A stretch of DNA of 64,000 nt, taken from contig JAFGVU010000202.1 in NCBI GenBank assembly GCA_016937855.1, positions 12,135-76,134 on the forward strand, read 5' to 3'. The notes below the pieces were generated by a model. It did no database searches. It was not told the origin of the DNA and saw nothing but the letters and a program-made list of their open reading frames with translations. The DNA comes from Bacteroidales bacterium. GTDB taxonomy: Bacteria > Bacteroidota > Bacteroidia > Bacteroidales > ML635J-15. Position numbers and translations under genes: made by a program. Below, one piece after another: positions 42,783 through 57,287 of this stretch. Positions within the stretch are counted from its first letter, which is position 1. Every line of letters starts with the position of its first letter.

Positions 42783-43112
42783 TTAAAAAATTGAATTGAT
42801 TATTTTTGTACTTATTTCTGTAAAATATGGCTCTTTAATTTTACAAACTTTTCTAATAACATCTCTATGCGTGTAGCCTGATATGATATGGCAAATCACA
42901 TAGCTTTGTTTCGACAACTCTTTACTTAACATATCATTATTAAGTTTGTAAGTATATTTTGAATTATAATTTTTTGAGGAAATCAAAGCAATATAAAAAA
43001 AATCTTCAGCCTCACTAATTTCATCATTAGAAATAATAACAGCCATATGTGGTTTAAAGGAACCGTCTGGGAATAAGAAATTCACCTCAACAATATCTTT
43101 CTGCTTATACAT
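42783..43112 (-). CDS. PemK/MazF-like type II toxin
   Basis: KDIVEVNF...KPHMAVIIS and SYVICHIISGYTHRDVIRKVCKI follow the MazF/PemK SH3-like fold pattern (GDIv.v.f...RPavViS; S.v.c.qi.ti....l). Its ATG overlaps the stop of the upstream small ORF. Confidence 0.6.
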   Translation of the reverse strand: MYKQKDIVEVNFLFPDGSFKPHMAVIISNDEISEAEDFFYIALISSKNYNSKYTYKLNNDMLSKELSKQSYVICHIISGYTHRDVIRKVCKIKEPYFTEISTKIINSIF

Positions 43113-43309
43113 TATAAATATTTTGAGATAACACCAGACATTGATCTCTTTGAGTTTGCAAAAAATATTTCAGCTTCTTGTTTAGCACTTAAATCAACCT
43201 GCTTCTTAATAAAAATACCTTTACCAGTAGATGCTAATAGTTTTGCAATTTCCAATAAAGCTTTCCCAGCTTTTGTTCTTGCATTTACCTCTATAGTTAC
43301 TGTTGACAT
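43112..43309 (-). CDS. putative antitoxin (65 aa)
   Basis: Small ORF translationally coupled to the MazF-like gene (1-nt stop/start overlap at 43112). Family not recognised. Confidence 0.45.
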   Translation of the reverse strand: MSTVTIEVNARTKAGKALLEIAKLLASTGKGIFIKKQVDLSAKQEAEIFFANSKRSMSGVISKYL

Positions 43310-43400: not shown

Positions 43401-43649
43401 TTAGGAAAATATTACGAGGATGATCCAGATCGGACTCGGGTGAAACAAGACAGAAAGGTTTTGAAATCAAAACCTGTTTTATCGTATATATGGTCTTATT
43501 GATGCGAGCATATAATATCGCGGATTATCCTCGTAAAATTCTTAGGAATTTTACGGGATGATCCAGTCTGGACTCGGGTGAACCAAGACAGAAAGGTTTT
43601 GAAATCAAAACCTGTTTTATCGTATATATAGTCTTATTGATGCGAGCAT
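43401..43649. repeat. tandem direct repeat, 2 units of ~108 bp (43401-43510 and 43542-43649)
   Basis: The units are near-identical by eye, and each contains the hairpin AGGTTTT-GAAATC-AAAACCT (43456-43475; 43594-43613). Unit 1 is closed by a 15-bp inverted repeat at 43412-43426 / 43522-43536. Confidence 0.85.
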
Positions 43650-43669
43650 CATAAGACCACATATACGAT

Positions 43670-43690
43670 AAAAGCCCGGCTTTGCCGGGC
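43670..43690 (-). terminator. terminator of the original (displaced) tRNA-Val 3' end
   Basis: GCCCGGC (43674-43680) pairs with GCCGGGC (43684-43690). On the minus strand it is followed by TTTT, immediately downstream of the tRNA 3' fragment. Confidence 0.7.
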
Positions 43691-43698
43691 TTTCTGTC

Positions 43699-43744
43699 TT
43701 GTGAGTCATGCTGGATTCGAACCAGCGACCCCTAGCCTGTCAAG
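43699..43744 (-). repeat. attL: displaced 3' part of tRNA-Val (anticodon loop to 3' end + 3 nt)
   Basis: 45 of 46 bp are identical to 57000-57045 (offset 13301 bp). The single difference, C43718 vs T57019, lies in the T-loop. Confidence 0.9.
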
Positions 43745-43806
43745 TGTATTTAAAAATATCAATACAAGCCATAATATCAAAGGGTTTAAGCTAGTTTTCA
43801 CAATTA

Positions 43807-43874
43807 TCATTTGCATGGTATTTGCAATTTAAAAATTGTTTTATAACATATTTGCTATCATAAAAACATTTGCC
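43807..43874 (+). promoter_or_regulatory. cluster of four ATTTGC(A) boxes inside the left end (candidate arm-type sites)
   Basis: TCATTTGCAT 43807, GTATTTGCAA 43818, ATATTTGCTA 43848 and ACATTTGCC 43866. The same motif, in the same orientation, is clustered at 56809-56870. Confidence 0.45.
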
Positions 43875-43979
43875 TAATTCCCATTAAACTCTAATCTTTT
43901 TAATGAAGTAAAAATACAAATATTTCACACAATCCCAATAGATAAAAGCCCAAATATTTGATATAATTAGAATCTTTTT

Positions 43980-43987
43980 TAACTTTG
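43980..43987 (+). promoter_or_regulatory. -7 box TAACTTTG for the cargo operon
   Basis: TAnnTTTG match 20 nt upstream of ATG 44008. Confidence 0.45.
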
Positions 43988-44007
43988 AAGACAAATTTTT
44001 AAAGATT

Positions 44008-47000
44008 ATGAATCTACAAACTTACATTTCCAATATTAATAGTCGTTATAAACTTGGAAACGCAACCGAACATACTTTTCGTGGCGACCTGCAGCAATTG
44101 TTCGAGGCATTGTTACCAGGAATAAAAGCCACCAACGAACCTAAACGGCAGGCTTGCGGTGCGCCCGATTACATCCTCACAAAAAAAGATATTCCGATTG
44201 CTTTTGTTGAGGCAAAGGACGTTGGTGCAGACCTTAACAGCAAATCATACAAGGAACAATTCGACCGCTACCGGAATTCGCTTAACAATCTTATTATTAC
44301 CGATTATTTAACATTCCAGTTTTTTAAAGATGGCAGCAAAGTTGACGAAATAAGTATTGCAGAAATATCTGAAAAAGGAATTATTGCAAAAGTCGAAAAC
44401 TTTGAAAAATTTGAGCTTTTACTGATTGAATTTTGCAAAAAAGTTGGTCAGACAATAAAAAGCCCAAAAAAACTTGCCGAAATGATGGCAGGTAAAGCAA
44501 GATTACTGGCTGATGTTATTGAAAAGGCTTTACTTAGTGATTCGGATAATTCCGAAGACAGCACACTCAAAGACCAGCTAATTGCTTTTCAACAAATACT
44601 AATACACGATATTTCTCCAAAAGCATTTGCTGATGTATATGCTCAAACAATTGCCTACGGTATGTTTGCTGCACGTTTGCACGATTCTACTTTGGATGAT
44701 TTTAGCAGACAGGAAGCTGCGGAACTGATCCCAAAATCAAATCCGTTTTTACGCAAACTGTTTGGCTACATTGCAGGACCGGACATTGACGACAGAATTA
44801 AATGGATTGTTGACAATCTTGTAGAAATATTCCTAGCTTGCGATGTTGCAAAGATTTTGGATAATTACGGCAAAGAAACCAAAACCGAAGACCCAATAAT
44901 TCACTTTTACGAAACATTTTTGAGCGAATACGATCCAAAACTGCGTAAAGCAAGGGGAGTTTGGTACACTCCTGCACCGGTTGTAAGTTTTATTGTGAGA
45001 GCTTTGGACGAAATTCTAAAAACAGAATTCGATTTACCAAACGGACTTGCCGACACATCCAAAACAAAGATAAAAGTAAATATGCAGGGCAAAATGGTTG
45101 AGCAGGAAGTACACAAAGTACAAATTCTCGATCCTGCAACTGGAACCGGAACATTTTTAGCCGAAACAATTAAGCATATTCATAAGAATTTTGAAGGACA
45201 ACAAGGAATCTGGAGTAATTATGTTGAAAATCATTTAATTCCTCGCCTTAACGGTTTTGAGTTGCTGATGGCAAGTTATGCAATGGCACATCTAAAACTC
45301 GAATTGCTATTAAAAGAAACAGGATTTAAACCAAGCTCAAACCAACGATTAAGAGTTTATTTAACCAACAGCCTCGAAGAGCACCACCAAGATACCGGAA
45401 CTTTATTTGCAAACTGGCTAAGTACCGAAGCAAGCGAAGCAAACAGAATTAAACGAGACACTCCGGTTATGTGTGTGATTGGAAATCCGCCGTATAGTGG
45501 CGAGAGTGCCAACAAAGGTGAATGGATAATGAAGTTGATGGAAGACTACAAAAAAGAACCAGGCGGAAAAGAAAAACTCAAAGAACAAAACTCAAAATTT
45601 ATCAATGACGATTATGTCAAGTTTTTGCGATATGGACAGCACTTTATAGAAAAAAATGGAAGCGGGATATTAGCATTTATTAATCCGCATGGCTTCATAG
45701 ATAATCCGACTTTTCGAGGCATGCGCTGGCATTTATTAAAAACTTATGATAAAATTTATACGTTGGATTTACACGGAAATGCAAAGAAAAAAGAAACTGC
45801 ACCAGATGGTTCTGCAGATGTTAATGTTTTTGATATAGAACAAGGCGTTTCAATAAATATCTTTATAAAAACTGGTAAGAAAAAACTTAATGAATTGGGA
45901 AGCATATTTCATTATGACTTGTACGGTAAAAGAGAATTAAAATATGATTTTCTTGCTGAAAATTCTTTAAAAAACGTAAAATATAAAAAGCTCGAACCAT
46001 TTGCTAACAGTTATGTTTTCAAAGAAATAGATGAAACTGCCCATTATAATTATGACAAAGGAATAAACCCAACCGAACTTTTTAAAATCAATGTAATGGG
46101 GTTTCAAACGCACAGAGATAACTTTTGTATTGATGAAAAGAAAAATATTTTATTTGATCGTTTATCACAATTTGCGCATTTCAATTTTGATGAAGATGAG
46201 ATTTTTAAAACATTTGGAATCAAATCAACAAGCGATTTTGATATTAGTAAAGCTAAATCAGAATTGTTAAAAGTTAATATTGAAAATGAAATAATAGAAT
46301 GTGCTTATCGACCTTTTGAGTGTAAATTTATTTACTTTGACAAAATAGTTGTTGATAGACCAAGAAAGGAACTTATAACTCATTCAAAGCATAGAGAAAA
46401 TCTATTACTAGGTATCGGTAGACAAGGTTTAGCAGTTGGAGATATACAATGGTGCCTGACAACCATTTCAAAACAACCAGTAGATGCAAATATTTTTAGA
46501 CGTGGGGGTGTGAATCTCTTCCCATTATATTTATATCCAGAAACAGATTCAACACAAAGCCTAAAATTAGATTCTATTCGCACTCCGAACTTGAATCAAG
46601 AAATTGTCTCACAAATTGCCGACAAGCTCAATTTAACTTTCACCAACGAAAAAGAGGCAACCGACAATACTTTTGCACCGATTGATATTCTCGATTACAT
46701 TTATGCAGTTTTACATTCGCCAACATACCGAGAGAAATACAAAGAGTTTTTAAAGATAGATTTTCCGAGAGTACCATATCCAAAAGACCAGGACACATTT
46801 TGGAAACTTGTAAAACTTGGTGGAGAAATACGGCAGATACATTTGCTCGAAAGTGAGATAGTAAACAAATACATCACAAGCTATCCGGAAGAAGGCGACA
46901 ATACAGTTACCAAACCAAATTACAACAGAGAATTGCAAAGAGTTTACATCAACGCAAACCAATATTTTGAAGGAGTTCCCGAAGTAGCATGGCATTTTTA

Positions 47001-47154
47001 CATCGGTGGCTATCAACCAGCCCAAAAATGGCTAAAAGATCGTAAAAATAGAGTTTTAGAATTTGATGATATTCTGCATTATCAAAAAATCATCGTTGCA
47101 CTTGCGGAAACAGATAGGTTGATGGGGGAAATTGACAAAATTGAAATTGAGTAG
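44008..47154 (+). CDS. single-chain restriction-modification enzyme: N-terminal PD-(D/E)xK-like nuclease + gamma-class N6-adenine MTase + Type ISP/IIG-like C-terminal domain
   Basis: Candidate nuclease motif GAPDY...(14 aa)...VEAKD, motif I ILDPATGTGTFL and motif IV GNPPYSGES. C-terminal blocks YAVLHSPTYREKYKEFLKIDFPRVPYP and GGYQPAQKWLKDRKNRVLEFDDILHYQKII. No helicase motifs. Confidence 0.75.
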   Translation: MNLQTYISNINSRYKLGNATEHTFRGDLQQLFEALLPGIKATNEPKRQACGAPDYILTKKDIPIAFVEAKDVGADLNSKSYKEQFDRYRNSLNNLIITDYLTFQFFKDGSKVDEISIAEISEKGIIAKVENFEKFELLLIEFCKKVGQTIKSPKKLAEMMAGKARLLADVIEKALLSDSDNSEDSTLKDQLIAFQQILIHDISPKAFADVYAQTIAYGMFAARLHDSTLDDFSRQEAAELIPKSNPFLRKLFGYIAGPDIDDRIKWIVDNLVEIFLACDVAKILDNYGKETKTEDPIIHFYETFLSEYDPKLRKARGVWYTPAPVVSFIVRALDEILKTEFDLPNGLADTSKTKIKVNMQGKMVEQEVHKVQILDPATGTGTFLAETIKHIHKNFEGQQGIWSNYVENHLIPRLNGFELLMASYAMAHLKLELLLKETGFKPSSNQRLRVYLTNSLEEHHQDTGTLFANWLSTEASEANRIKRDTPVMCVIGNPPYSGESANKGEWIMKLMEDYKKEPGGKEKLKEQNSKFINDDYVKFLRYGQHFIEKNGSGILAFINPHGFIDNPTFRGMRWHLLKTYDKIYTLDLHGNAKKKETAPDGSADVNVFDIEQGVSINIFIKTGKKKLNELGSIFHYDLYGKRELKYDFLAENSLKNVKYKKLEPFANSYVFKEIDETAHYNYDKGINPTELFKINVMGFQTHRDNFCIDEKKNILFDRLSQFAHFNFDEDEIFKTFGIKSTSDFDISKAKSELLKVNIENEIIECAYRPFECKFIYFDKIVVDRPRKELITHSKHRENLLLGIGRQGLAVGDIQWCLTTISKQPVDANIFRRGGVNLFPLYLYPETDSTQSLKLDSIRTPNLNQEIVSQIADKLNLTFTNEKEATDNTFAPIDILDYIYAVLHSPTYREKYKEFLKIDFPRVPYPKDQDTFWKLVKLGGEIRQIHLLESEIVNKYITSYPEEGDNTVTKPNYNRELQRVYINANQYFEGVPEVAWHFYIGGYQPAQKWLKDRKNRVLEFDDILHYQKIIVALAETDRLMGEIDKIEIE

Positions 47155-47157
47155 AAT

Positions 47158-48078
47158 ATGGAAACGAAAAGTACAGACACTGGAATCGAAGAAAAGCAAA
47201 ATATTTTTGTAAAGGTTATTATAATTATTGCAGTTATTGTTTTTGCTTTTGGAGTTTATATTGCATTTTTCCCTATTGCAAAATGGGGCATACATTACAG
47301 TAATGACGGCTTTGTTAGTGCTATTTTCTCACTTATTGGTGCAGTACTTTTCTTTGGCGCATTGGTTTACCAAATTAAAGAATATCAAAATCAGCTAACA
47401 GAATTAAAACTCTCAGTTGAAGCACAAACAGCATCAAGCATAGCAATGCAAGAGCAAAAAGAAATAATGCTTCAGGCAAATAATAGAGAGTTAATTTTGA
47501 GTTTAATTGATAAGTTGATAGATTATATGGAAAATAATAAAATTAATGGTTTTATAGAATCTACATTAAACAATTGCTTTAAATCTACTTACGTTTCGCA
47601 AACAAATATATCAAATTCAGATGTAAATGATTATGAAACCATTGACACAGCAATGAATAGTTTTTATAAGTCTTTCAAGGAATCTTTCAATAAAAACCAT
47701 GAAGATAATAAATTTAAAATAAGAAGTTTTATTATTCAAATCGAAGGGATACTAAATATAATTAAAAATATAAAAGAGATAGATGAAAAGGTTGCATTGA
47801 CTCAATTACTCATGTCAAACATAAAGGTTGTTGGGATTACGTACTATCTCACCTGGAGAATGAACAAAATGAGCTTTAATAGAATTTCTTTTGAGTGGCA
47901 AAAAACTGCATCCTCATATTTATTTAATAGTATAGATAAAAGCTACATAAACTTCAAAGCGTATTCAGTTAAAGATCAAGAAAATATCGAGATGCTTGAT
48001 AAGGAGTTAAAGCAACAATTCATAAATAATGGGATATTTGTTCTCTATCAAGAACAAGAACTAAGAAAAAATCATTAA
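47158..48078 (+). CDS. 2-TM membrane protein with coiled-coil, AbiC-like architecture
   Basis: Starts 4 nt after the MTase stop. It has two N-terminal TM helices, then YQIKEYQNQLTELKLSVEAQ, which resembles the TM-plus-Q/E-rich helix layout I recall for putative AbiC (PF16872) proteins. Confidence 0.4.
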   Translation: METKSTDTGIEEKQNIFVKVIIIIAVIVFAFGVYIAFFPIAKWGIHYSNDGFVSAIFSLIGAVLFFGALVYQIKEYQNQLTELKLSVEAQTASSIAMQEQKEIMLQANNRELILSLIDKLIDYMENNKINGFIESTLNNCFKSTYVSQTNISNSDVNDYETIDTAMNSFYKSFKESFNKNHEDNKFKIRSFIIQIEGILNIIKNIKEIDEKVALTQLLMSNIKVVGITYYLTWRMNKMSFNRISFEWQKTASSYLFNSIDKSYINFKAYSVKDQENIEMLDKELKQQFINNGIFVLYQEQELRKNH

Positions 48079-48134
48079 ATTAGCAAAATAGCTATATCCA
48101 GTTGGGTGGTAGGTCACGAAATACCGTAACAAAA

Positions 48135-48875
48135 ATGCAAGAATATATGGAAAGTCAAGAAAACATGCAAAATAAAAAAATACTCACTTTTAAAATTACT
48201 ATATCTTCAATTGCAATAATCTTATTAGTATTTCATTTAATATTTCCAACATTTTTAAATGACAATTTCTCTTTTATTCTATTACTCCTAATCTTGCTGC
48301 CCTGGATAAATATTATCGTAAAAAAAATAGAACTATTCGGAGTTTCGGTTGATTTAAACCCTCCTGATGATGCAAAGCAATCATACCCAGTTGAAACATA
48401 TGACAGTAACGGAACAAATGAGAAAAACAAATTAGTTATTATCAATTTTAAGGAATCTAAAAATTTTTATTTTGATCACACTTCAAAAAATATTTTGTTT
48501 ATAAATGCAAGAATAAATCATCCTCAAGAAGCTGGCGCTGGTGCTTTAATTAAAATTACTGTAAACAAAAAAGTTTTAACTGACAAGAACTTGTTATCAA
48601 AGCCGAATGAAAGAATAATTGGTGATGGACGTACATCGTTATGGTATAATGCTCGAAAAGAATCATTCATCATTCCATATAGCCCTGATTTTAAAGCGAA
48701 TTACTTTAGTGATAAATATAGAGTAATAAATGGTGATGCATACAACTTTAAATTCAATATTTCTCAAATCGTTTCTGATAATGGAAAATATTGCGTTCAA
48801 ATTGTCCATACTGGTGATAGTACAGAAGACCAATATAAAAATGCCATTATAATAAGGGAAATTGGAGTTGAGTAA
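48135..48875 (+). CDS. 2-TM membrane protein with unknown beta-rich C-terminal domain
   Basis: Same strand, less than 60 nt after the previous gene. It has two TM helices and no recognised motif. Start placed at ATG 48135 rather than TTG 48102. Confidence 0.5.
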   Translation: MQEYMESQENMQNKKILTFKITISSIAIILLVFHLIFPTFLNDNFSFILLLLILLPWINIIVKKIELFGVSVDLNPPDDAKQSYPVETYDSNGTNEKNKLVIINFKESKNFYFDHTSKNILFINARINHPQEAGAGALIKITVNKKVLTDKNLLSKPNERIIGDGRTSLWYNARKESFIIPYSPDFKANYFSDKYRVINGDAYNFKFNISQIVSDNGKYCVQIVHTGDSTEDQYKNAIIIREIGVE

Positions 48876-48958
48876 AAGTTATAGGTAACTTAAAATCTCA
48901 CTGATGGGCATATACAAGCCATTTAAGAAAAGAATATCGGCATCGCTGTTAATTGACA

Positions 48959-49942
48959 CTATTCCAAATCTTCCTTACTTTTCTTCTTTTTTACGACACC
49001 ATTCTCAAATTCATTTTCTACATCTCTTTTATAATACAGGTATTCATTATTGTTTTCAGGATTGATAATGTGTCTAATTTTGCTTTCTTGTCTAACAGTA
49101 TGCAAGTCTTTTTCGGAACAAGCACCATAAATAGACATCAGTTCTTGATTGTTTAGCCAATCATTCCTATCAAAGCTATTCTTTAATTCTTCAATAGGTA
49201 TCCGATTATTAATTTTAAAATTTACTCGAGTATTAGAAATAATAGGATGCAAATTTCGTGATAATTCTGCAATAATTGATTTTATTGCACGACTATCCAA
49301 AACTCCGACTTCAAAAAGCCATAAAATAAATGGACTTTCTTCTGTATATTCTACAAATCGTTTTTCCCTTTCCTCAATATCACCTGCTAAGGATTCAAGC
49401 ACATCATCAGTTAATGGAGAAAAGTAAGTTTCAAAAAAATCATTTAATCTTAAAGGATGAACCCAAGCTTCATCAGGATAAATATCATTCCCAATTGCAT
49501 CAGTCATGTAAAAATCAAAATACTTGTTCTGTGTAATGCTATAAACAATACTTTTGTTAAGGTGCAAACACTCAAACAAACCAGGTTTAAGATACATCAT
49601 GTCTAAATATATATACCCTAATCGCTCTATAAAAAAATCATAATCGAAGTTACTAATCAATTCGCTTATTTCTTGATTCGAGTTTTGTTTGGTTAGAAAA
49701 TATAGTAAATCGGATTGAAAATCTGCAATTGAAGTATTGATAAATATAGTTGGATTAACTTCTAGTGCATCCGAAATTTTTAATAATGTTGAAATCTTAG
49801 TGTCACCACTTTTAATTATATTGGTTATTCCTTGTCTTGTTACTCCAGATTCTTTTGCTAAAGTTTCAATATTCATGTTTTTCTCTTTCAGCAACAAATT
49901 CATTATTTGACCTATTTTACTCATAATCAGCATTTTAGACAA
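48959..49942 (-). CDS. XRE-family HTH regulator with large C-terminal extension ending in a second (HTH_17-like) DNA-binding motif
   Basis: N-terminal MNIETLAKESGVTRQGITNIIKSGDTKISTLLKISDAL is an XRE-type HTH. C-terminal ELMSIYGACSEKDLHTVRQESKIRHIINPENNNEYLYYKRDVENE resembles excisionase/MerR-type HTH. It is divergent from the Xis-like gene. Confidence 0.6.
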   Translation of the reverse strand: MSKMLIMSKIGQIMNLLLKEKNMNIETLAKESGVTRQGITNIIKSGDTKISTLLKISDALEVNPTIFINTSIADFQSDLLYFLTKQNSNQEISELISNFDYDFFIERLGYIYLDMMYLKPGLFECLHLNKSIVYSITQNKYFDFYMTDAIGNDIYPDEAWVHPLRLNDFFETYFSPLTDDVLESLAGDIEEREKRFVEYTEESPFILWLFEVGVLDSRAIKSIIAELSRNLHPIISNTRVNFKINNRIPIEELKNSFDRNDWLNNQELMSIYGACSEKDLHTVRQESKIRHIINPENNNEYLYYKRDVENEFENGVVKKKKSKEDLE

Positions 49943-50002
49943 TTCATTTATATTTATTTTATATTTTTCTTAGTTTTTCTTGTCATTTTTAGCAATTTTA
50001 CT

Positions 50003-50010
50003 TACATTTG
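50003..50010 (+). promoter_or_regulatory. -7 box TACATTTG in the divergent regulatory region
   Basis: TAnnTTTG match 59 nt upstream of ATG 50070. Confidence 0.35.
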
Positions 50011-50069
50011 TATCGTAAACAGAATGTATTTTACGCAAATATAGTAATAATTAACTAAATAATAAATTT

Positions 50070-50327
50070 ATGAAACAAGAATTAGTCATTATGACAAAAG
50101 ATGAATTTAGAGACTCAACCATTGCGATTGTAAGGCAAACTGTAAGAGAGTTAGAGAAAGGCAAAACCGCAAGCAAACTTTTTTATAAAAGTCAAGTAGC
50201 AAGGCTCTTAGGAAAGTCTCACAACACCATTAAAAAACTATGCGAAAATGGTTTTATAAAAACAACAGCTTCAGGCATGATAACGCAGGCAGCACTGGAC
50301 GAGTATTTAAATAGTGAGAATAAATAA
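50070..50327 (+). CDS. excisionase-like HTH_17 DNA-binding protein
   Basis: YKSQVARLLGKSHNTIKKLCENGFIKTTASGMITQAALDEYL matches the helix-turn-helix excisionase pattern. First gene of the rightward module. Confidence 0.55.
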   Translation: MKQELVIMTKDEFRDSTIAIVRQTVRELEKGKTASKLFYKSQVARLLGKSHNTIKKLCENGFIKTTASGMITQAALDEYLNSENK

Positions 50328-50455
50328 ATAGTTAAATCATCTTTTGTCGGAAAAGCATAAAAAAAGAGGCTTCCCACCACAAGACCACCTCTTTTTTTAA
50401 AGCAATAAAAGCATTGTAACCGCTTTTCTAGTACAAAGATACAAAAATTAAAATT

Positions 50456-50716
50456 ATGGCAAAATTTAAAGTAGTAGAATTTAGTGAAATGTTAATTCAC
50501 AGTGAATGTAAAGTGTCGTTTAATCTCGAAGATTTGGTTGATATGTCCAATGGCTTATCAATCATAATCGCTAATGCTATGCCCCAAATAGCATCCAACG
50601 GAATAATTGATAATTCACAATCTTATGATTTATCCGCAGTGTTAAATTTTAAAGCCGCCCTAGACAGGTTTTGTATGGAAACGCTTTGCAGTAATAATAA
50701 TAAAATAAATGAGTAA
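50456..50716 (+). CDS. hypothetical protein
   Basis: 86-aa ORF in the rightward module, with its stop 2 nt before the next start. Confidence 0.4.
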   Translation: MAKFKVVEFSEMLIHSECKVSFNLEDLVDMSNGLSIIIANAMPQIASNGIIDNSQSYDLSAVLNFKAALDRFCMETLCSNNNKINE

Positions 50717-50718
50717 CT

Positions 50719-51216
50719 ATGAAAATAAATAGGAATTACATAAAACTGATTTTTTTCTTAAAGCTAATACAGCACAATGAAAATCAACAGAATGAACGCA
50801 CAAAGCTAAAAGGAGAGCACATAGCATTTTTTAATTACGATTTGCTTGATGATTACGACTATGGAAATGACAACATTATTAAGTTAGATGATAAAATTGG
50901 GTTCTCTCTCTCTCCCCTAAATGCCAATCGTACAAGGAGAACCATTTACAATTATGTAAAAAGAATGACAAATGCACAAATATTTGAAAATCAAATTAGA
51001 TTGGGACGAAATGGCTCAATTTTGATTTTGAGTAATGATTTTCTAATCAAAAAAGATGCATCCGGAGAAATAGATCTTCCAAACTTTTTGAAAGGGAATT
51101 CAGAGGCTGCCGAGATTTGGCAAAAATTCAAGAATAAAAGATTATTTACGCTCTTTCAAATCGAAAATCTTTATAAGGAATTAAAAATCAAAAACACATA
51201 TCAAAACAACTATTAA
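50719..51216 (+). CDS. hypothetical protein
   Basis: 165-aa ORF, tightly spaced. No motif. Confidence 0.45.
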   Translation: MKINRNYIKLIFFLKLIQHNENQQNERTKLKGEHIAFFNYDLLDDYDYGNDNIIKLDDKIGFSLSPLNANRTRRTIYNYVKRMTNAQIFENQIRLGRNGSILILSNDFLIKKDASGEIDLPNFLKGNSEAAEIWQKFKNKRLFTLFQIENLYKELKIKNTYQNNY

Positions 51217-51270
51217 AATTAACAGGTGTCAATTTTGACACTATCAAAACAACTATTAAAAACATAAATT

Positions 51271-52083
51271 ATGGGACTATTCACAAAAAGAAATGAGCTG
51301 CAAGATATCGAAAATGTCTTTATGCAACTAGCGACAGAACAGAACTATTCAAAAAACGAGATTGCAGTTTATCTGTACTTATTACATAAGTGTAATCCTG
51401 ACACATTAAAAACAAATTGCTCCCTGGACACTTTATCTACGGAACTTAAAATAGCAGTAAATACTGTTAAATCTTGCCGAGATGGTTTACATGATTACAA
51501 TTTACTTACTTATGAGAAGTATGAAAACACTCCTACTACATACTTCATTAGAGATTTAGTAAAAGACCCGATTACAAACACGGAACCTGCCGACCAGGAT
51601 CAGATTTGGGACGTGCAAAATGTTGATGATTATAAAGTACTAAACGAAAGCTCAAACGAAACAAAAACAGAACACAGCAAAACTGCATCTTTTTTGGATA
51701 TAGACCTTTCATTTGTCGAACCTGACTTATTACCTGCATACAAAACACTCATTTACAACAAATCAAAACATAAAATTCCTTATTCTCAAGAGAGTACACT
51801 CGAGCTTTATTCTCGAATATCATCTTCAATAAGCATTGATGAACACAAAAAAATGATTTTCAATATGATTAGTAGCATTATTGAGGGTAATGTTTTTTCT
51901 GTTTTAGATGATTATGATTTGAGTTTTGTTGAAGATGAATTGTACGAAGTTTTTACTAAGCATATTATTGACGAAATTGCTTTCGGTAATACTTTTTCAC
52001 AATCGCAGCTAATTGACATGTATTCGGAGGCATTAGCTAATTCATTTGGAGATATAGAGGAATTTGAAAAAAAATTAAAATAA
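51271..52083 (+). CDS. hypothetical protein with N-terminal winged-helix-like region
   Basis: NEIAVYLYLLHKCNPDTLKTNCSLDTLSTELKIAVNTVKSCRDGLHDYNLLTY resembles a DnaD/replication-initiator-type wHTH. It sits directly upstream of the primase-helicase. Confidence 0.45.
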   Translation: MGLFTKRNELQDIENVFMQLATEQNYSKNEIAVYLYLLHKCNPDTLKTNCSLDTLSTELKIAVNTVKSCRDGLHDYNLLTYEKYENTPTTYFIRDLVKDPITNTEPADQDQIWDVQNVDDYKVLNESSNETKTEHSKTASFLDIDLSFVEPDLLPAYKTLIYNKSKHKIPYSQESTLELYSRISSSISIDEHKKMIFNMISSIIEGNVFSVLDDYDLSFVEDELYEVFTKHIIDEIAFGNTFSQSQLIDMYSEALANSFGDIEEFEKKLK

Positions 52084-52089
52084 ATAGTT

Positions 52090-54285
52090 ATGTCGTATTT
52101 GCAGCAAAGGTTAAAAGAAATGAATATTACGCAGAAAGATAATACTTTTACTGCGACTAATATTGAGCATACTAATCAAAGATTTAGTTTTTTTTCAGAG
52201 GATGCCGATGGTAATATAATTATAAGTTACCTCTCTCCTGATGGTTTTATAGAATATTATACTCCTGACAATAAGAAGTTCCTGCCTTTTAATCGGATTA
52301 GATACAAATCGCCTGATGACAACAAAAGAAAATATAAACAAGCCTTTGGGACAGAGGTAATTCCGTTTTCAACTCCTAGAATTATAGAATCTTTTCAGAA
52401 AAAAGAAAAGGTAAAAACACTTTATATAACTGAAGGTGAGTTTAAATCTTTTTCGCTTAGCAAAGAGGGAATACATTGTATGGGTATTGGAGGGATACAC
52501 AATTTCAAGAACAAGGATAAAGACAAGTTACACCAATACATAATTGATTTCATTAAAACTTGTCAGGTGGAAAACATAGTTTTATTGTTTGATGCAGATT
52601 GCTTAAAAGTAGAGTGGAAAGAAAACGAAGATTTAACAACTCGATTGAAACAATTCCATTCAGCTGTTTCAACATTTAACGAATTGCTTAAGCCTTTTGA
52701 CGTTACGATGTATTTTGCACATATTGACGTAAATAGTGAACATAAAGGCATCGACGATTTACTTAATGCTGTAAAGAACAAAAAAGATGTACTAGATGAA
52801 CTAACCTCATTTACTAGTGGTTCTGAAAATCGCAAATATATCCATACATATAAAGTTTCAGGAGTCTCACCTTATAATATTAAGCGGATATTTGGATTAG
52901 ATAGCGTACAAACATTCTTCGAGAAAAACTTTTCCCTTTTACAAGATAAGGAATTTATTTATTATAAAGACCCATATTATTGTGATGCAAATGGAAAATT
53001 AAGCGTTAGTTGGAAAGGCGAACAAAACAATTACATAAGAATTGGCACAGATTACTTTAAAAAGGTTATAGAAACATCTCCAAATAAACAAACAGAAATA
53101 AATTTAAAGCGTTGGACAATAACTACAATAAAAGCGGACTATAACAAATCTAATATTTTTATCAATAAAATACAAAAGTGCGATAGTTTCACAAACATTC
53201 CCGAAAACGATCCTAAAGAATATAAACAAATTGTTCATTCTGAAAAAAATGGAATAAAATCAGTATTATACAATCGTTATGAGCTTGTTTCTCACATCCC
53301 ATCAGAAGGAGACTGGTCAAATATTGACAATCTGTTACATCATATTTTTGATTATCAAAACTGTTCAGGAGAGCCGTTATATGAGTTTGCTTTAGACTAT
53401 TTACAAATTCTCTACAAATCTCCTGTCACCAAACTGCCGGTATTGTGTTTAGTCAGCAAGGAAAACGGCACAGGAAAAACAACATTCCTTGAATTTTTGA
53501 GAGCAATTTATGTTGAGAATATGCGAATTTTAGACTCCGATAGAATTAGCAGTAAGTTTAACGGCAGTTGGGCAGGTAAGTTAGTTGTTGCCATTGATGA
53601 ATCTTTAATTGCTATGGATAAGGATACTGTCAAGAACCGGATTAAAATGATAGCGACTAATAAAACAATACCATTAGAAGAAAAAGGTTTAGAAGCTCGT
53701 GAAATCCCGAATTTTGCAAAACTTATTATGTGTAGTAATGATGAAAACAACTTTATGCGAATAGACCAGGAAGAGAACAGATATTGTATAATAAAGGTTC
53801 CTGCAATTCCTCTTGACAAAAGAGATAACAAGCTATATGATAAAATGATTAAAGAGATACCGGCATTTCTATATTTCTTAAAAAACAGAAAACTGCATTA
53901 TCCTGATGTTTCTCGTTTGTACTTTGATGAAAGAATCTACACAACTCCTGCACTTAAAAAAGTAAAAGAAAGAACAGAAGCTCCACTAATTAAACACATA
54001 AAAGACGTTATTCGAGGTCAGTTTGAAAAAAGCAATACTGATTACGTTAGACTATCTCTTAAAGCTTTATACGATTTGGTAAAACTACAATATGCTTATG
54101 CAGATAGACTTAAAATTCAAGAATGGCTCAACGATAATAACTATAAGACAAGTTCAGCATCAAACATTGAGTATTATTTGCCTGATAACGATGAACCTAT
54201 TAAGACTAAAGCTAAATATTACGAGTTTGAAATAAACAACTTCTTTTCAGAGGAAGAGTTAGCAGACCTTTTAGTAAATGGCTAA
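52090..54285 (+). CDS. primase-helicase (Toprim-like N-terminal region + SF3/D5-P4-type NTPase)
   Basis: Toprim-like acidic motifs (LYITEGEFKS ... IVLLFDADC), Walker A SKENGTGKTTF and Walker B VVAIDES, in a 731-aa protein. Confidence 0.7.
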   Translation: MSYLQQRLKEMNITQKDNTFTATNIEHTNQRFSFFSEDADGNIIISYLSPDGFIEYYTPDNKKFLPFNRIRYKSPDDNKRKYKQAFGTEVIPFSTPRIIESFQKKEKVKTLYITEGEFKSFSLSKEGIHCMGIGGIHNFKNKDKDKLHQYIIDFIKTCQVENIVLLFDADCLKVEWKENEDLTTRLKQFHSAVSTFNELLKPFDVTMYFAHIDVNSEHKGIDDLLNAVKNKKDVLDELTSFTSGSENRKYIHTYKVSGVSPYNIKRIFGLDSVQTFFEKNFSLLQDKEFIYYKDPYYCDANGKLSVSWKGEQNNYIRIGTDYFKKVIETSPNKQTEINLKRWTITTIKADYNKSNIFINKIQKCDSFTNIPENDPKEYKQIVHSEKNGIKSVLYNRYELVSHIPSEGDWSNIDNLLHHIFDYQNCSGEPLYEFALDYLQILYKSPVTKLPVLCLVSKENGTGKTTFLEFLRAIYVENMRILDSDRISSKFNGSWAGKLVVAIDESLIAMDKDTVKNRIKMIATNKTIPLEEKGLEAREIPNFAKLIMCSNDENNFMRIDQEENRYCIIKVPAIPLDKRDNKLYDKMIKEIPAFLYFLKNRKLHYPDVSRLYFDERIYTTPALKKVKERTEAPLIKHIKDVIRGQFEKSNTDYVRLSLKALYDLVKLQYAYADRLKIQEWLNDNNYKTSSASNIEYYLPDNDEPIKTKAKYYEFEINNFFSEEELADLLVNG

Positions 54286-54302
54286 CAAATTAGTATCACT
54301 TG

Positions 54303-54360
54303 TTTTTTCGATACTTATCGACTTTTTTCGACACTTATCGACACTTAACGGCTTTTTTCG
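54303..54360 (+). repeat. iteron-like direct repeats downstream of the primase-helicase
   Basis: TTTTTTCGATACTTATCGAC, then TTTTTTCGACACTTATCGAC, then ACTTAACGGC-TTTTTTCGGC in tandem. Confidence 0.6.
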
Positions 54361-54408
54361 GCAACTAAATGGAAACAATTAATAAATTTAACAAAAAAAA
54401 ATTTTACA

Positions 54409-54945
54409 ATGAAAACACAAAAAGGAAAAAATCTAATAGTTGGCGCTCTTGGTACTCTTGGGATCGCTACTTTGTTTATTGGTGGCCAAGCATTTAGACT
54501 GAACAAATGGCTCAATCAACTATCTGTTAAACAAACTGGTAATATTATTGGTGTACGCGATGATAAAATCATATTGAAGTATCAAACAATAATTGAAAAT
54601 TCAAAAGGAATTGAGAGGATTATAAGCAAGCCGACAATAACAATTTTTAATCAAGGTGAAAGAATCGCAATGTTCACTTCAAAAAATGATAAAATCAAAA
54701 TTAGCAAACACACTATTACACGTATAGACTATGAATTTTCAATTTCAAAATCATACGGGAATATTTATAAAACTCTTTTGAACTCCAGTAATGATGCAGA
54801 TAAAAAGATAGACTATATTATTAAGAGATCTTTTTTCACCAGCAGAAATTCACCTGTTGTGTTCGGAGTTGAACTTGATGTTGAAATAGAAATGAAAATT
54901 GGTTTTGGTTTAAAAAGACGTGTAAAAGTCAAAATGATTATCTAG
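54409..54945 (+). CDS. hypothetical single-TM protein
   Basis: N-terminal TM (LIVGALGTLGIATLFIGG). No motif. Confidence 0.45.
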   Translation: MKTQKGKNLIVGALGTLGIATLFIGGQAFRLNKWLNQLSVKQTGNIIGVRDDKIILKYQTIIENSKGIERIISKPTITIFNQGERIAMFTSKNDKIKISKHTITRIDYEFSISKSYGNIYKTLLNSSNDADKKIDYIIKRSFFTSRNSPVVFGVELDVEIEMKIGFGLKRRVKVKMII

Positions 54946-54987
54946 CTATCTGTTGTTTCTTATTTTTTCTCCACATATACTTTAAAA

Positions 54988-55015
54988 ACAGGCTCATGAC
55001 GAGTCTGTTTTTTTT
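54988..55015 (+). terminator. rho-independent terminator
   Basis: ACAGGCTC (54988-54995) pairs with GAGTCTGT (55001-55008, one G-U), followed by a T-run. Confidence 0.65.
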
Positions 55016-55049
55016 ATCAAATTATAAAATTGTATGGTAGTGATTATGT

Positions 55050-55274
55050 CGGATATCAAAATTCAAATAAATTAGGTAGATTTAGTTGATTTGGTAGATA
55101 TTGCGATTAAAGCATTGCTATTACTATATTTATATTATTTTTTAATAAAGTAGATAAAGGTAGATAAAGTATATAAATAAAAAACTATCTACCATTACCT
55201 ACCAATTGATTTTCAAACATCTACCTTGTAACCATTTGAAAAACAAACACTTATACAAAATCTACCAAATCAAC
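55050..55274. promoter_or_regulatory. symmetric array of GGTAGAT / ATCTACC boxes around an AT-rich core (candidate ori or recombination-directionality site)
   Basis: Forward boxes lie at 55075, 55093, 55153 (GTAGAT) and 55159. Reverse boxes lie at 55187, ~55197 (ACCTACC), 55219 and 55260. There is a perfect 15-bp inverted repeat GTTGATTTGGTAGAT (55085-55099) / ATCTACCAAATCAAC (55260-55274). Confidence 0.55.
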
Positions 55275-55582
55275 GTGGTTTTGTAAAAATTGTCACACAT
55301 TTTTTTGATTTTTACGCTTTTTTGATTTATCTTTGTGGTAATAATCTCTTGTACTTAGGACGCTGTTTTTTACAGATTTTGCCTTTAATCCTACAAGAGA
55401 TTTTTTTTGTCATGTTGAAATATTGTGTGTTTTTGCATAAGTATTCTTTTGCGATTGGGATGCTGATTTCAGACTTCGCCCGAAACACCGTAAAAGAATA
55501 CTTCTTAAAATATAGCTATGCACACCTGTCGCAATTGATGCTTCGGTCACTGCATAGTTTTTTATTTTAGAATGTAATTAGG

Positions 55583-56806
55583 CTACAATTTCAAAGCTGC
55601 GATAACCTTTTCATTAGCATCATCAATCAAATCGTCATCATAATCAATATAAACAGCCGTTACATCATTATTTGAGTGTCCTAGTGCAAGTCTAATTATA
55701 TCGTAGTCAATACCTATTTTCCTAGCAATTGTAGCCCAACTATGTCGAGCATAATAAGTTGACAATTCAACATTTATTTCCAAATCTTTAGCTATATTTT
55801 TTAGGTGTTTATTTGTCGTTTTAATTACATCAGAGTGCAATTCTGTTTTTCTCTCGGTATTATATTTTTTAAGCTTTTTCTCCAATATGTCAATCAAAAA
55901 TTTATCTCCTCGATACTTTTTAATGATATTTTTAGCTTCAGCAACTATTTTAATACTCATTCCCTTTTTAGTTTTAGACCGATAAAACTCTATCCTATTA
56001 TTGTAAATATCAGTTTGTTTCGCATAAAGCAAATCTTTAAAATTCATCCCTATAAGGTAAAAGCTTAATTTAAACAAGTCTAGTGCTTTATTTTCAGCCC
56101 TGGTCCCGGAGTAATTAAACAATTTAACCATATCATCAATACTTAAAGCTCTATGTCTAGTTTTTTCTGTAACAATCTTAAAGTTTTTAAATGGATATTC
56201 GTTGTATGTGATATATGAGTTTTTTATTGCATAGTTAAACACAGCTCTAATATTTCTCAAGTTAATGGAGATGTAATTAGTTTTATTATTATTATTTCGC
56301 AAATAATCAACTAACTTTTGTAAGAAACTAGGATCAATCTCTCGTAAAAGTATTTTTCTGTTTTTACTAAACTTCTCCAAAATTGTTTTAGTATTTTCAT
56401 ATAGCCTGTAAGTACCGGATTTAGGGTTTTCCTTTTTCTTCAAAAGTATAAATTCATCGAGAATGTCATTAAAATAAATGGATTTCTCTTTTGTCATGTG
56501 CTGTAAAAACAACTGTTTAATATCAACCGCTTTATAGACATTTATATTTTCTCTTGCAACCAAAGCAAATAAGAACTGCTCAAAGTTTTGTTTGTATTCC
56601 AGTAACAGTATATTTTCTCGATCAATATGATAATCTGTGCATGATTTCTTAATTTTACACTTAACGTCATCCCAATCACTTTGCTTTAAATTGTAAGGCA
56701 AGGCAATATATGCTACTGTTGAATTATGTGAAATTCTTAATTTCAAAGGGAACTTATTGTTTGCAATAGCCCTTCTAGTATCTAATAAAATTGTAGATTT
56801 TGCCAT
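55583..56806 (-). CDS. int: tyrosine recombinase / integrase (Bacteroidota type with N-terminal arm-binding domain)
   Basis: Catalytic blocks ARHSWAT, LGHS and the terminal AVYIDY tyrosine. The N-terminal KFPLKLRISHNSTVAYIALPYNL resembles an Arm DNA-binding domain. Start placed at ATG 56806 (MAKSTILL) rather than GTG 56818. Confidence 0.85.
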   Translation of the reverse strand: MAKSTILLDTRRAIANNKFPLKLRISHNSTVAYIALPYNLKQSDWDDVKCKIKKSCTDYHIDRENILLLEYKQNFEQFLFALVARENINVYKAVDIKQLFLQHMTKEKSIYFNDILDEFILLKKKENPKSGTYRLYENTKTILEKFSKNRKILLREIDPSFLQKLVDYLRNNNNKTNYISINLRNIRAVFNYAIKNSYITYNEYPFKNFKIVTEKTRHRALSIDDMVKLFNYSGTRAENKALDLFKLSFYLIGMNFKDLLYAKQTDIYNNRIEFYRSKTKKGMSIKIVAEAKNIIKKYRGDKFLIDILEKKLKKYNTERKTELHSDVIKTTNKHLKNIAKDLEINVELSTYYARHSWATIARKIGIDYDIIRLALGHSNNDVTAVYIDYDDDLIDDANEKVIAALKL

Positions 56807-56808
56807 AA

Positions 56809-56870
56809 TTATTTGCACACTATTTGCACGATTTTCTTACAAAAATACATTATTTGCACATAATTTGCAA
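56809..56870 (+). promoter_or_regulatory. cluster of four TATTTGCA(C) boxes at the right end (candidate arm-type/operator sites)
   Basis: TTATTTGCAC 56809, TATTTGCACG 56821, TATTTGCACA 56851 and TAATTTGCAA 56861, followed by tandem AAGGAATAAA x2 (56878-56897). Confidence 0.45.
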
Positions 56871-56940
56871 TTTTTTAAAGGAATAAAAAGGAATAAAAAG
56901 GAACGTAAACGAACATAAAAAACTAATACAAGGCTAAATA

Positions 56941-56995
56941 AAAAGCTTAATATTACTTTGTTTGAACTCTACAAACATCATAATATCAAGCTTTT
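56941..56995 (-). terminator. element-encoded terminator for the reconstituted tRNA-Val
   Basis: A 15-bp inverted repeat (56941-56955 / 56981-56995). Its single mismatch is a G-U only on the minus strand. The minus strand continues with a U-rich tract, but the loop is long (25 nt). Confidence 0.5.
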
Positions 56996-57002
56996 ATTTT
57001 TG

Positions 57003-57077
57003 TGAGTCATGCTGGATTTGAACCAGCGACCCCTAGCCTGTCAAGCTAGTGCTCTAAACCAACTGAGCTAATGACTC
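57003..57077 (-). tRNA. tRNA-Val (anticodon GAC)
   Basis: Manual cloverleaf: acceptor GAGTCAT/ATGACTC, D arm GCTC-AGTTGGTTTA-GAGC, anticodon arm CTAGC-TTGACAG-GCTAG, T arm GCTGG-TTCAAAT-CCAGC, discriminator A. 75 nt, with no encoded CCA. Confidence 0.9.
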
Positions 57078-57107
57078 TTATAATTAAATTCTAAATAGAA
57101 ACACATA

Positions 57108-57287
57108 AGTGCTCTAAACCAATCCCGAAAAATCATAAAATTTATTGAAATTTTATAATATTTTTCGAGGAGTCTCGATTTTTAACGAAAAATCTATTCT
57201 CCTTATAAAATCCAAATCTTTCAAAAAACTTATCACTCTTTTCAGGTAGATTTTTCTAAAAATCGGACCTGAGCTAATGACTCTTAT
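57108..57287 (-). pseudogene. split pseudo-copy of tRNA-Val leader + nt 1-28, interrupted by 146 bp in the D-loop
   Basis: 57108-57122 is identical to 57048-57062, and 57269-57287 is identical to 57063-57081. The insert spans 57123-57268. Confidence 0.8.

Follow-up and report, generated by a model that had tools for sequence, protein, structure and literature searches.

Several families of small integrative elements that travel with the help of phages, or in particles, have been described. Phage-inducible chromosomal minimalist islands (PICMI) are defined by an integrase gene, an alpA gene (PF05930/PF12728) and a primase gene of the DUF3987 or DUF5906 type, and they are packaged as concatemers by a helper phage (PMC10803314). 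For the phage-inducible chromosomal islands (PICI) a list of core components is available, and more than 99.9% of the catalogued members belong to Proteobacteria or Firmicutes (PMC10085698). The virion-encapsidated integrative mobile elements (VEIME) were obtained from virions, and their hosts include Flavobacteria; they carry integrase, primase/helicase, AlpA and restriction-modification (R-M) genes and no capsid genes (PMC9618062). Tycheposons are replicating, cargo-carrying elements that target tRNA genes and have been found in capsids and vesicles (bioRxiv 10.1101/2020.12.28.424599). Here we describe a 13.3-kb element with 11 open reading frames (ORFs) from the genome of a Bacteroidales bacterium (contig JAFGVU010000202.1), of which a stretch of 64 kb, subsequently referred to as the window, was analysed. 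We read it as a site-specific integrative, self-replicating, satellite-like island of the PICI/PICMI/VEIME/tycheposon kind that carries a phage-type replicon and occupies the tRNA-Val(GAC) gene, and we give this reading about an even chance. In the literature searched, there was no report of a phage satellite in Bacteroidales, nor of the host lineage or replicon family of this island.

Like PICMI, the island combines an integrase (PF00589), a PF12728 protein (a marginal match) and PF19263 within 6.8 kb, and thus has the defining trio. It is also small, bounded by direct repeats and devoid of capsid and packaging genes, and it carries accessory anti-phage cargo. However, it is located in tRNA-Val and not downstream of fis, its host is a member of the Bacteroidota instead of the Vibrionaceae, and its 13.3 kb and 11 ORFs compare with six genes in the prototype PICMI115. 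The N-terminal part of its primase-helicase is DUF3854 rather than DUF3987, it has additional genes for a long XRE repressor and a DnaD-like protein, and its integrase gene adjoins the origin, with the HTH_17 and XRE genes at the opposite end of the island.

With PICI, including the pathogenicity islands of Staphylococcus aureus (SaPI), the island shares its size class, the attachment (att) repeats, an integrase at one end, a divergent regulator pair, a primase/replicase and the lack of phage structural and lysis genes. Three of the five PICI core components are present; a small terminase and a capsid-morphogenesis gene were not found with Pfam, PHROGs or NCBIfam. Unlike in PICI and SaPI, the integrase is encoded at the opposite end from the repressor. 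The resemblance to P4 lies in the integrase gene beside a tRNA gene, the AlpA-family helix-turn-helix protein, the Toprim and superfamily 3 (SF3) primase-helicase at its own origin and the position of the defence cargo. In contrast to P4, Pfam and PHROGs gave no homologues of psu, delta, sid or epsilon, no cos site was identified, and the host phylum is a different one. VEIME and tycheposons have in common with the island the tyrosine integrase, an AlpA/Xis protein, a primase-helicase, R-M cargo and the absence of capsid genes, and as in tycheposons the far end is marked by a partial copy of the tRNA, while the tRNA locus has been used repeatedly. The differences from these two groups are a Marinilabiliales/Salinivirgaceae-like host, another primase-helicase family and the source, since the island is known here from sequence and not from virions or vesicles. 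In its working the island is comparable to PICI and PICMI, yet it belongs to neither group.

Insertion into the tRNA-Val(GAC) gene

The only tRNA gene of the window, tRNA-Val(GAC), was located on the minus strand by ARAGORN (57002-57077) and by the Rfam tRNA model (57003-57077, 70.1 bits). Its 3' half belongs to a near-perfect direct repeat. A repeat finder returned 43689-43744 and 56990-57045, and reading of the sequence delimits 46 bp (43699-43744 and 57000-57045) of which 45 are identical. In the orientation of the tRNA, the repeat starts with CTTGACAGG, which is the last base of the anticodon stem followed by the anticodon loop, and it ends 3 nt beyond the discriminator base. A 28-nt core pattern has exactly two copies in the window, while shuffles give an expectation of 0.00. 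The two copies of the repeat start 13,301 bp apart, and this is the size of the insert. The features of the island and their coordinates are collected in Table 1.

The lone mismatch in the repeat is a C at 43718 and a T at 57019. It changes the T-loop from TTCGAAT in the displaced copy to TTCAAAT in the intact tRNA-Val, and position 57 of the T-loop is a purine in both. The displaced copy is 100% identical to the 3' halves of tRNA-Val in two related genomes (L004 and L127, see below) and is therefore the chromosomal one. The A in the T-loop of the rebuilt tRNA either entered together with the element or is a later change. In the former case, strand exchange would have fallen within 57020-57045, the interval from the anticodon loop to the T-loop; such a placement is weak, because a related attP (in L132, see below) has a G at this position. 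The original chromosomal terminator (43671-43693) remains joined to the displaced fragment. The rebuilt tRNA-Val is instead followed by a hairpin and a U-run provided by the element; the hairpin was not called by a simple terminator scan, and it is conserved in the attP of L132. By these comparisons, the element provides a new 3' half for tRNA-Val together with a hairpin of its own. The original prediction had been made from the bare sequence, and the present analysis agrees with it on the 13.3-kb length and the precise att sites, on the 46-bp repeat and its extent from the anticodon loop to 3 nt past the tRNA, and on the functional 3' half and the terminator hairpin both being supplied by the element. 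For excision, the predicted restored attB reads ...TTGGTTTAGAGCACTAG-CTTGACAGGCTAGGGGTCGCTGGTTCGAATCCAGCATGACTCACAA-GACAGAAAGCCCGGCAAAGCCGGGC and the predicted attP junction of the circle reads ...TTGTATTGATATTTTTAAATACA-CTTGACAGGCTAGGGGTCGCTGGTTC(A/G)AATCCAGCATGACTCACAA-AAATAAAAGCTTGATATTATGATG, both in the tRNA sense.

Table 1. Features of the island in the order of their position in the window
Feature	Position	Strand	Basis and remarks
attL core, displaced 3' half of tRNA-Val, T-loop TTCGAAT	43699-43744	-	Direct repeat, core-pattern count, identity to L004/L127
Candidate P-arm cluster, four ATTTGC	43809-43873	+	Copies at 43809, 43820, 43850, 43868; spacing 11/30/18
Type IIG R-M enzyme, single-chain, N6 methylase and Type ISP C-terminal specificity domain	44008-47154	+	PADLOC, Pfam
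Two cargo ORFs (306 aa and 257 aa) that follow the R-M gene directly	47158-48078, 48102-48875	+	No family match
XRE-family regulator, N-terminal HTH_3	48959-49942	-	Pfam HTH_3 3.9e-8; PHROG transcriptional repressor
HTH_17 protein, 85 aa	50070-50327	+	Pfam HTH_17 (PF12728) 26.0 bits, cutoff 27
Two small ORFs, 86 aa and 165 aa	50456-50716, 50719-51216	+	No family match
Two exact 20-bp direct repeats TATCAAAACAACTATTAAAA, 43 bp apart	51199-51218, 51242-51261	+	Just upstream of the DnaD-like gene
Weakly DnaD-like protein (helicase loader/replication initiator), 270 aa	51271-52083	+	phrog_186 8.6e-6, phrog_8102 2e-3
Primase-helicase, N-terminal DUF3854 (Toprim-like), C-terminal DUF5906/SF3 helicase	52090-54285	+	Pfam; PHROG DNA primase
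Six tandem 10-bp repeats of the TTWTCGACAC type	54305-54363	+	Directly after the primase-helicase stop codon
178-aa ORF between the primase-helicase gene and the origin	54409-54945	+	No family match
Candidate replication origin, GGTAGAT iterons around an AT-rich centre	55075-55266	.	Plus: 55075, 55093, 55159; minus: 55187, 55219, 55260
Tyrosine integrase, 407 aa from ATG at 56806	55583-56806	-	Pfam Arm-DNA-bind_5, Phage_int_SAM_5, Phage_integrase; PHROG integrase 1e-30
Candidate P'-arm cluster, four ATTTGC	56811-56868	+	Copies at 56811, 56822, 56852, 56863; spacing 11/30/11; overlaps the int start region
Element-supplied hairpin and U-run downstream of the rebuilt tRNA-Val	56925-57003	-	-24.2 kcal/mol, z = -6.6
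attR core, 3' half of the intact tRNA-Val (57003-57077), T-loop TTCAAAT	57000-57045	-	ARAGORN, Rfam, direct repeat

The locus without the insert was found in a related genome. A scan of species-representative genomes with the Pyr_redox protein of the right flank returned metagenome-assembled genomes of Marinilabiliales, Bacteroidales and Salinivirgaceae at 74–84% identity. One of them, L004, has the order Pyr_redox, ParA-like ORF, tRNA-Val with TTCGAAT and terminator, followed 60 bp further on by a gene for a 1078-aa protein. This gene is orthologous to the left-flank gene 39496-42687, which encodes a 1063-aa protein (54% identity over 1,070 residues). The empty attB that had been sought among related genomes thus exists, in the form of an uninterrupted tRNA-Val locus in L004 that joins both conserved flanks. 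In L003, the tRNA-Val gene is followed by CAAGACAGAAAGCCCGGCAACGCCGGGCTTT, the same terminator as after the displaced fragment in the window.

Two further loci illustrate the use of this site by other elements. In L127 (GCA_002919055.1, PPCM01000084.1; 9719-11275), the tRNA-Val gene of the same chromosomal neighbourhood is followed by a hairpin, ATTGCA arm repeats and the gene for an integrase with 49% identity, beyond which lie two ORFs without assigned function and one that reads like a transposase in translation. The occupancy by a different integrase element means that tRNA-Val(GAC) has served as a landing site more than once. L132, a contig from another sample (SRR8925748; 700-1100), encodes an integrase with 89% identity. 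In front of this gene lie the P' arm and hairpin known from the window and a 46-bp core, where the similarity to tRNA-Val breaks off at precisely the same base as in the window, CTTGACAGG. Upstream of the core there is a second arm with TTTGCA repeats in place of the 5' half of the tRNA. From this arrangement, L132 carries an uninterrupted attP. The neighbouring genes (Peptidase_M23 and others) differ from those in the window, so that the integrase-attP module is exchangeable between elements.

The integrase gene adjoins the rebuilt tRNA-Val. Homologues with 96% and 89% identity both have the same length of 407 aa, and the catalytic K282, R358 (Arg-II), H381 (His-III) and nucleophile Y390 are conserved. 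Inward of the two att cores, at distances of 65–130 bp and 131–189 bp, we noticed clusters of the hexamer ATTTGC, the second of which can be aligned with the attP of L132 and is followed by tandem AAGGAATAAAA repeats (56880-56915). These are the only two clusters of at least four ATTTGC on the same strand within 70 bp in the window, and none of 1000 shuffles produced any. The layout is that expected for arm-type sites bound by the arm-binding domain of the integrase, and we regard the clusters as candidates for such sites. The idea that ATTTGC clustering is a general feature of this genome was rejected, as both clusters lie at the ends of the element. Site-specific insertion with reconstitution of the tRNA is thus accompanied, judging from the sequence, by a complete set of integration signals.

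The surroundings of the insertion display additional repeats. Two direct repeats of 94 nt (plus strand, 43418-43511 and 43556-43649; 95% identical, period 138 nt) are situated between the displaced tRNA fragment and a PemK-toxin/antitoxin pair (42783-43309). Each consists of a degenerate stretch resembling a tRNA 3' end, CAAGACAGAAAG, a GGTTTTGA/TCAAAACC hairpin and TTTTATCGTATATATGGTCTTAT..GATGCGAGCAT, and the last ~50 nt of each (from CAAGACAGAAAG, hairpin excepted) are an inverted mirror of the flank 43651-43702. The repeats and the toxin-antitoxin pair are missing from the empty site in L004, and together they may be debris of older integrations. Upstream of tRNA-Val (57108-57123 and 57269-57287), the first 34 nt of the gene region are duplicated as ATAA, GAGTCATTAGCTCAG and TTGGTTTAGAGCACT; this copy is interrupted in the D-loop by an insert of 145 nt. 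The split arrangement is kept in L004 (12517-12690, 77% identity) and absent from L003 and L127. Rfam gave no match for the 94-nt repeats or for the split copy, and a permissive search of both flanks yielded noise only.

Exact-protein look-ups returned no identical protein on record for the integrase, the 1063-aa left-flank protein or the R-M enzyme. The look-ups of the flanks led to short contigs of a single sample (SRR13394436), which break at repeats. The only metagenome contig with the island backbone, L036, comes from this sample and matches positions 46725-57092 of the window. One of its ends falls within the R-M gene and the other 15 nt beyond the 5' end of the tRNA; differences between strains, either in the cargo or in the upstream repeat, may account for these breaks.

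Replication, regulation and cargo

The primase-helicase gene is the centre of the replication module. The C-terminal half of the protein gave a profile match to the PDB entries 6k9c/6k9e ('Primase', a phage primase-helicase domain, E 2.8e-16). By manual reading of the invariant residues, we assigned E115-G-E117 and D168/D170 to the Toprim motifs and G462-K463 and D503-E504 to Walker A and B. The gene is intact. There are hundreds of homologues with 48–71% identity in Bacteroidales-type metagenomes. Among deposited phage genomes no full-length relative was found, and the best matches reach at most 25% identity over the helicase part.

A non-coding stretch of 640 bp between the 178-aa ORF and the integrase gene contains the candidate origin, a convergent array of GGTAGAT iterons. 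Six of the 13 copies of this heptamer in the window fall into the origin region, compared with 4.25 copies expected for the whole window. Three related loci have the same convergent arrays ~100 bp past the stop codon of their primase-helicase genes (L035, L069 and L074, with 71%, 72% and 63% identity at the protein level), and L031 (63%) displays the same array design with the variant TGTAGA(C/T). Position and design of the array are conserved, and the one variant occurs beside one of the more diverged initiators. On comparative grounds, there is thus a good case for an origin on which the primase-helicase acts. A similar arrangement is known from SaPI, where an iteron origin with an AT-rich centre lies just downstream of the primase/replicase gene. 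The DnaD-like protein has a relative with 41% identity in L035; searches of PDB sequences with this protein and with the HTH_17 protein were empty.

The two regulatory genes are transcribed divergently. The XRE protein, a probable repressor, has a likely true start that gives 321 aa, of which the C-terminal ~250 aa form an extension without annotation. This extension may be a sensor; Pfam detected no recognisable S24 self-cleavage domain in the protein. A search of 5.8 billion proteins returned a single homologue of the XRE regulator (94% identity). The counterparts in the related islands L031 and L035 are only ~27% identical (tblastn), and those of L074 and L084 were detected by the family profile alone; the regulator evolves very fast. 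The HTH_17 protein is a candidate for an excisionase/AlpA-like factor. Between the HTH_17 gene and the next ORFs there is a hairpin (50358-50399) with a perfect 12-bp stem (TAAAAAAAGAGG...CCTCTTTTTTTA), and for the replication genes to be expressed, transcription may have to read through it or start from a second promoter.

Between the P arm and the XRE gene, the island carries the gene for a single-chain R-M enzyme (PADLOC REase_MTase_IIG, 1177.5 bits, covering 3-1046; Pfam Type_ISP_C 9e-87, N6_Mtase and Eco57I) and the 306- and 257-aa ORFs, for which there is no match in Pfam, PADLOC or PHROGs. This cargo position is empty in L035. In L031, it is occupied by an unannotated ORF of 361 aa, and another 7 kb of genes (among them ATP-grasp and HEPN) are found between origin and integrase gene, so that the islands have two variable cargo positions. 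The R-M enzyme and the unannotated ORFs are cargo and may be of benefit to the host. As for the remaining ORFs, the 165-aa ORF has a relative in L035, while no homologue of the 178-aa ORF was found in the related islands. By our reading of the translations, the 306-, 257- and 178-aa ORFs each have a hydrophobic stretch in the N-terminal part. The GC content is 28–31% in the backbone, 35–38% in the R-M gene and ~34% in the surrounding chromosome, and the AT-rich backbone together with the GC-richer R-M gene fits a mosaic origin.

Capsid, portal, terminase, tail and lysis/holin genes were absent from 43745-56999 and from the sequence just beyond the borders according to Pfam, PADLOC, PHROGs and NCBIfam. 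No match to a relaxase, MobC, coupling protein or type IV secretion/conjugation protein was obtained with Pfam, NCBIfam and PHROGs at E <= 0.01. No terS family rose above noise, the only hit being phrog_57 (E 5.9e-4) on the helix-turn-helix of the 85-aa protein. The absence of capsid, terminase, relaxase and conjugation genes asserted in the original prediction is therefore upheld, and structural or conjugation genes of the same element are not found beyond the borders either, where the flanks consist of chromosomal genes conserved in L004. The gene set that the prediction had listed (integrase, Xis-like HTH, XRE regulator, Toprim/SF3 primase-helicase and iteron-like repeats) is present in full, and the repeats are more extensive than described, as they comprise the GGTAGAT array, the 10-mers and the 20-bp repeat. 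The 'defence hotspot', in contrast, was an overstatement: there is one recognised defence gene, and PADLOC gave one weak match only in the cargo of the related islands.

Related islands and competing explanations

Clustering of the ORFs from ~95 fetched loci revealed two architectures. The island architecture has the order long XRE gene on the minus strand, HTH_17 gene on the plus strand, zero to five small ORFs, primase-helicase gene, origin, no or several cargo genes and integrase gene on the minus strand, mostly next to a tRNA gene on the minus strand. It is shared by the island in the window and four others, with sizes of ~7.7–13.5 kb: L031 (~13.5 kb) and L074, both at tRNA-Lys, L084 (~7.7 kb) at tRNA-Gln, and L035 (~8.4 kb), in which we detected neither a tRNA gene nor cargo and which carries at either end an arm repeat of its own, TTACGGACGG. 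At the far end, short direct repeats are plausible but weak in L031 and L084 (12–13 nt) and ambiguous in L074.

In the second architecture, which is found in contigs and prophages of phage-like character, the primase-helicase gene is followed by other genes. L033, for example, encodes a head maturation protease and a large terminase, and the IMG/VR contigs with a primase-helicase gene measure 34–49 kb. Where the integrase gene is visible in phage-like loci (L064, L094, L104 and L111), it lies upstream of the regulator gene and not after the origin. The HTH_17 family occurs in five of five islands and in none of the phage-like loci sampled; the long XRE gene likewise is present in all five islands, whereas the XRE proteins of the phage-like loci have ~100–125 aa. 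In a neighbour-joining tree, four island primase-helicases cluster together. Taken together, the island-specific HTH_17 and long XRE genes, the position of the integrase gene and the tree suggest that the islands form a lineage of their own which shares its replicon with phages, and these small islands do not look like random prophage wrecks. The exception is L069, a phage-like locus with an endolysin (loci noted at 1483-1693 and 10715-11266), the island-type replicon and the same convergent GGTAGAT array. It may point to an exchange of replicons between phages and islands, or possibly to a helper relationship. A BLASTN comparison of the island with all fetched loci gave no non-coding block in common with phage-like loci as a candidate for a cos or pac site.

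For a satellite-like island, the following life cycle can be proposed. The long XRE protein would keep the divergent early operon switched off. On induction, the HTH_17 protein and the integrase would recombine attL with attR, which would restore tRNA-Val with its chromosomal terminator and set free a circle. The primase-helicase, perhaps with the DnaD-like protein, would fire the iteron origin. As the island has no virion, lysis or conjugation genes, the copies might then leave the cell by hitch-hiking, most probably in helper-phage particles, a last step that we suggest more tentatively than the others. Such an exit would make the island satellite-like, as PICMI and VEIME are, and transfer would then be phage-dependent.

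Several observations weigh against this interpretation. Neither a determinant of packaging (terS, cos or pac) nor a gene for capsid remodelling nor a helper phage came to light. Neither a circular junction nor a restored attB was seen from the same population, the flank contigs of SRR13394436 contain neither an empty site nor a circle, and attR is crossed by a single metagenome contig, in which the element is integrated. Neither the sequence of core plus hairpin (the attP side) nor the integrase was found by scanning IMG/VR, although this collection does not settle encapsidation. The HTH_17 match is just below the Pfam cutoff, and a fold search was not significant, with Pukovnik Xis and BldC as best local fits; the single-sequence model is mediocre (pLDDT, the predicted local distance difference test, of 68). 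The replication role of the DnaD-like protein rests on one weak PHROG match. Finally, the canonical Arg-I of the integrase is replaced by N (GMNFKDL) and its His-II by Y (YYARHSW), and it could be impaired by these substitutions. However, the integrases of L104 (29% identical) and L127 have both of the same substitutions, an argument for a variant that is functional and specific to the clade. Arg-I is likewise missing at the aligned position in IntDOT of Bacteroides. The layout supports the original prediction of a satellite/PICI-like or cryptic integrative-replicative element, whereas satellite behaviour is a matter of resemblance, since no packaging function, helper or circle was seen.

It is also conceivable, if rather improbable, that the element is a cryptic remnant of a temperate phage that lost its late region and at most excises and replicates but no longer spreads. 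The primase-helicase and iteron module is indeed found in phage-like contigs (L033, L069 and the IMG/VR contigs of 34–49 kb), and relatives of the integrase belong to other elements, such as L131 with a holin and a glucosaminidase or L132 with its Peptidase_M23 neighbour. However, five independent islands share the same compact order with the integrase gene after the origin, which would not be the outcome of deleting a late region, and a simple late-region deletion of the sampled prophages was rejected because their integrase gene lies on the opposite side. Moreover, the HTH_17 and long XRE genes are specific to islands, and the grouping of the four island primase-helicases also speaks against a remnant. 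All backbone genes have full length compared with their homologues, and the att repeat has retained its 45 of 46 identities. Unlike an intact prophage, the att-bounded segment 43745-56999 has no capsid, portal, terminase, tail or lysis genes, and not even fragments of structural genes were found.

Another alternative is that the element moves without a dedicated helper phage. It could be an integrative plasmid-like or tycheposon-like island that excises and replicates on a signal of its own, for example DNA damage, and is spread in vesicles, by natural transformation or, occasionally, by generalized transduction. The modules for integration and replication are both complete, none of its genes points to phage hijacking, and tycheposons, which likewise combine a tRNA-targeting recombinase, an excisionase, a primase/helicase and cargo, have been found in capsids as well as vesicles (bioRxiv 10.1101/2020.12.28.424599). 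DUF3854 Rep proteins furthermore drive the autonomous replication of cyanobacterial plasmids (PMC10079941). On the other hand, genes for partition or copy control, as a maintained plasmid typically has, were not found, phage-like elements rather than plasmids hold the nearest relatives of the replicon, and the XRE protein has no recognisable S24 domain for an SOS response. We consider such a plasmid-like island unlikely. Much less probable still is a mobilizable element of the type of the Bacteroides elements NBU1 and NBU2, moved by a co-resident conjugative element with the help of an unrecognised relaxase or of an oriT alone. NBU1 and NBU2 are elements of ~10 kb that sit at tRNA 3' ends and encode an integrase and the primase-like PrmN1. 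The island resembles them in the Bacteroidota host, the rough size, the tRNA 3' end, the Bacteroidetes-type tyrosine integrase and the primase-like gene, and its five unannotated ORFs leave room for a relaxase. In contrast to NBU1 and NBU2, it has no recognised Mob relaxase, and the search for relaxase, MobC, coupling-protein and type IV secretion genes described above was empty; an oriT is not recognisable by sequence here. It also differs by its full primase-helicase and iteron origin with relatives in phage-like elements, and in the minimal relatives (L084, and L031 with regard to its backbone) there is no further conserved ORF that might encode a relaxase.

Implications for Bacteroidota

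The element is a textbook-quality integrative and replicative island, and a well delimited, fairly ordinary satellite-like example in which we found nothing that is mechanistically without precedent. If it were merely a cryptic island, its value would be limited to annotation. As it stands, it is a moderately interesting entry point to satellite-like elements in Bacteroidota. The locus is clean and fully delimited: it offers attL and attR together with arm-type sites and an origin, a relative contributes the empty site, and there is a related attP. A model for finding such islands in Bacteroidota from gut, rumen and sediment could start from it. It also marks tRNA-Val(GAC) as a landing site that has been used more than once, and it places a restriction enzyme on a self-replicating island that moves.

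A more far-reaching idea, which we regard as speculative and rather doubtful, is that the islands represent the first recognisable phage-satellite lineage of Bacteroidales/Marinilabiliales, sharing initiator and GGTAGAT iteron specificity with phage-like elements such as L069. The markers of this would-be lineage are the long XRE gene, the island-specific HTH_17 gene and the DUF3854-DUF5906 primase-helicase gene beside an integrase and a tRNA gene. If it is real, helper and satellite could fire each other's origins, a replicon-sharing parasitism that is undescribed for PICI, P4 and PICMI.

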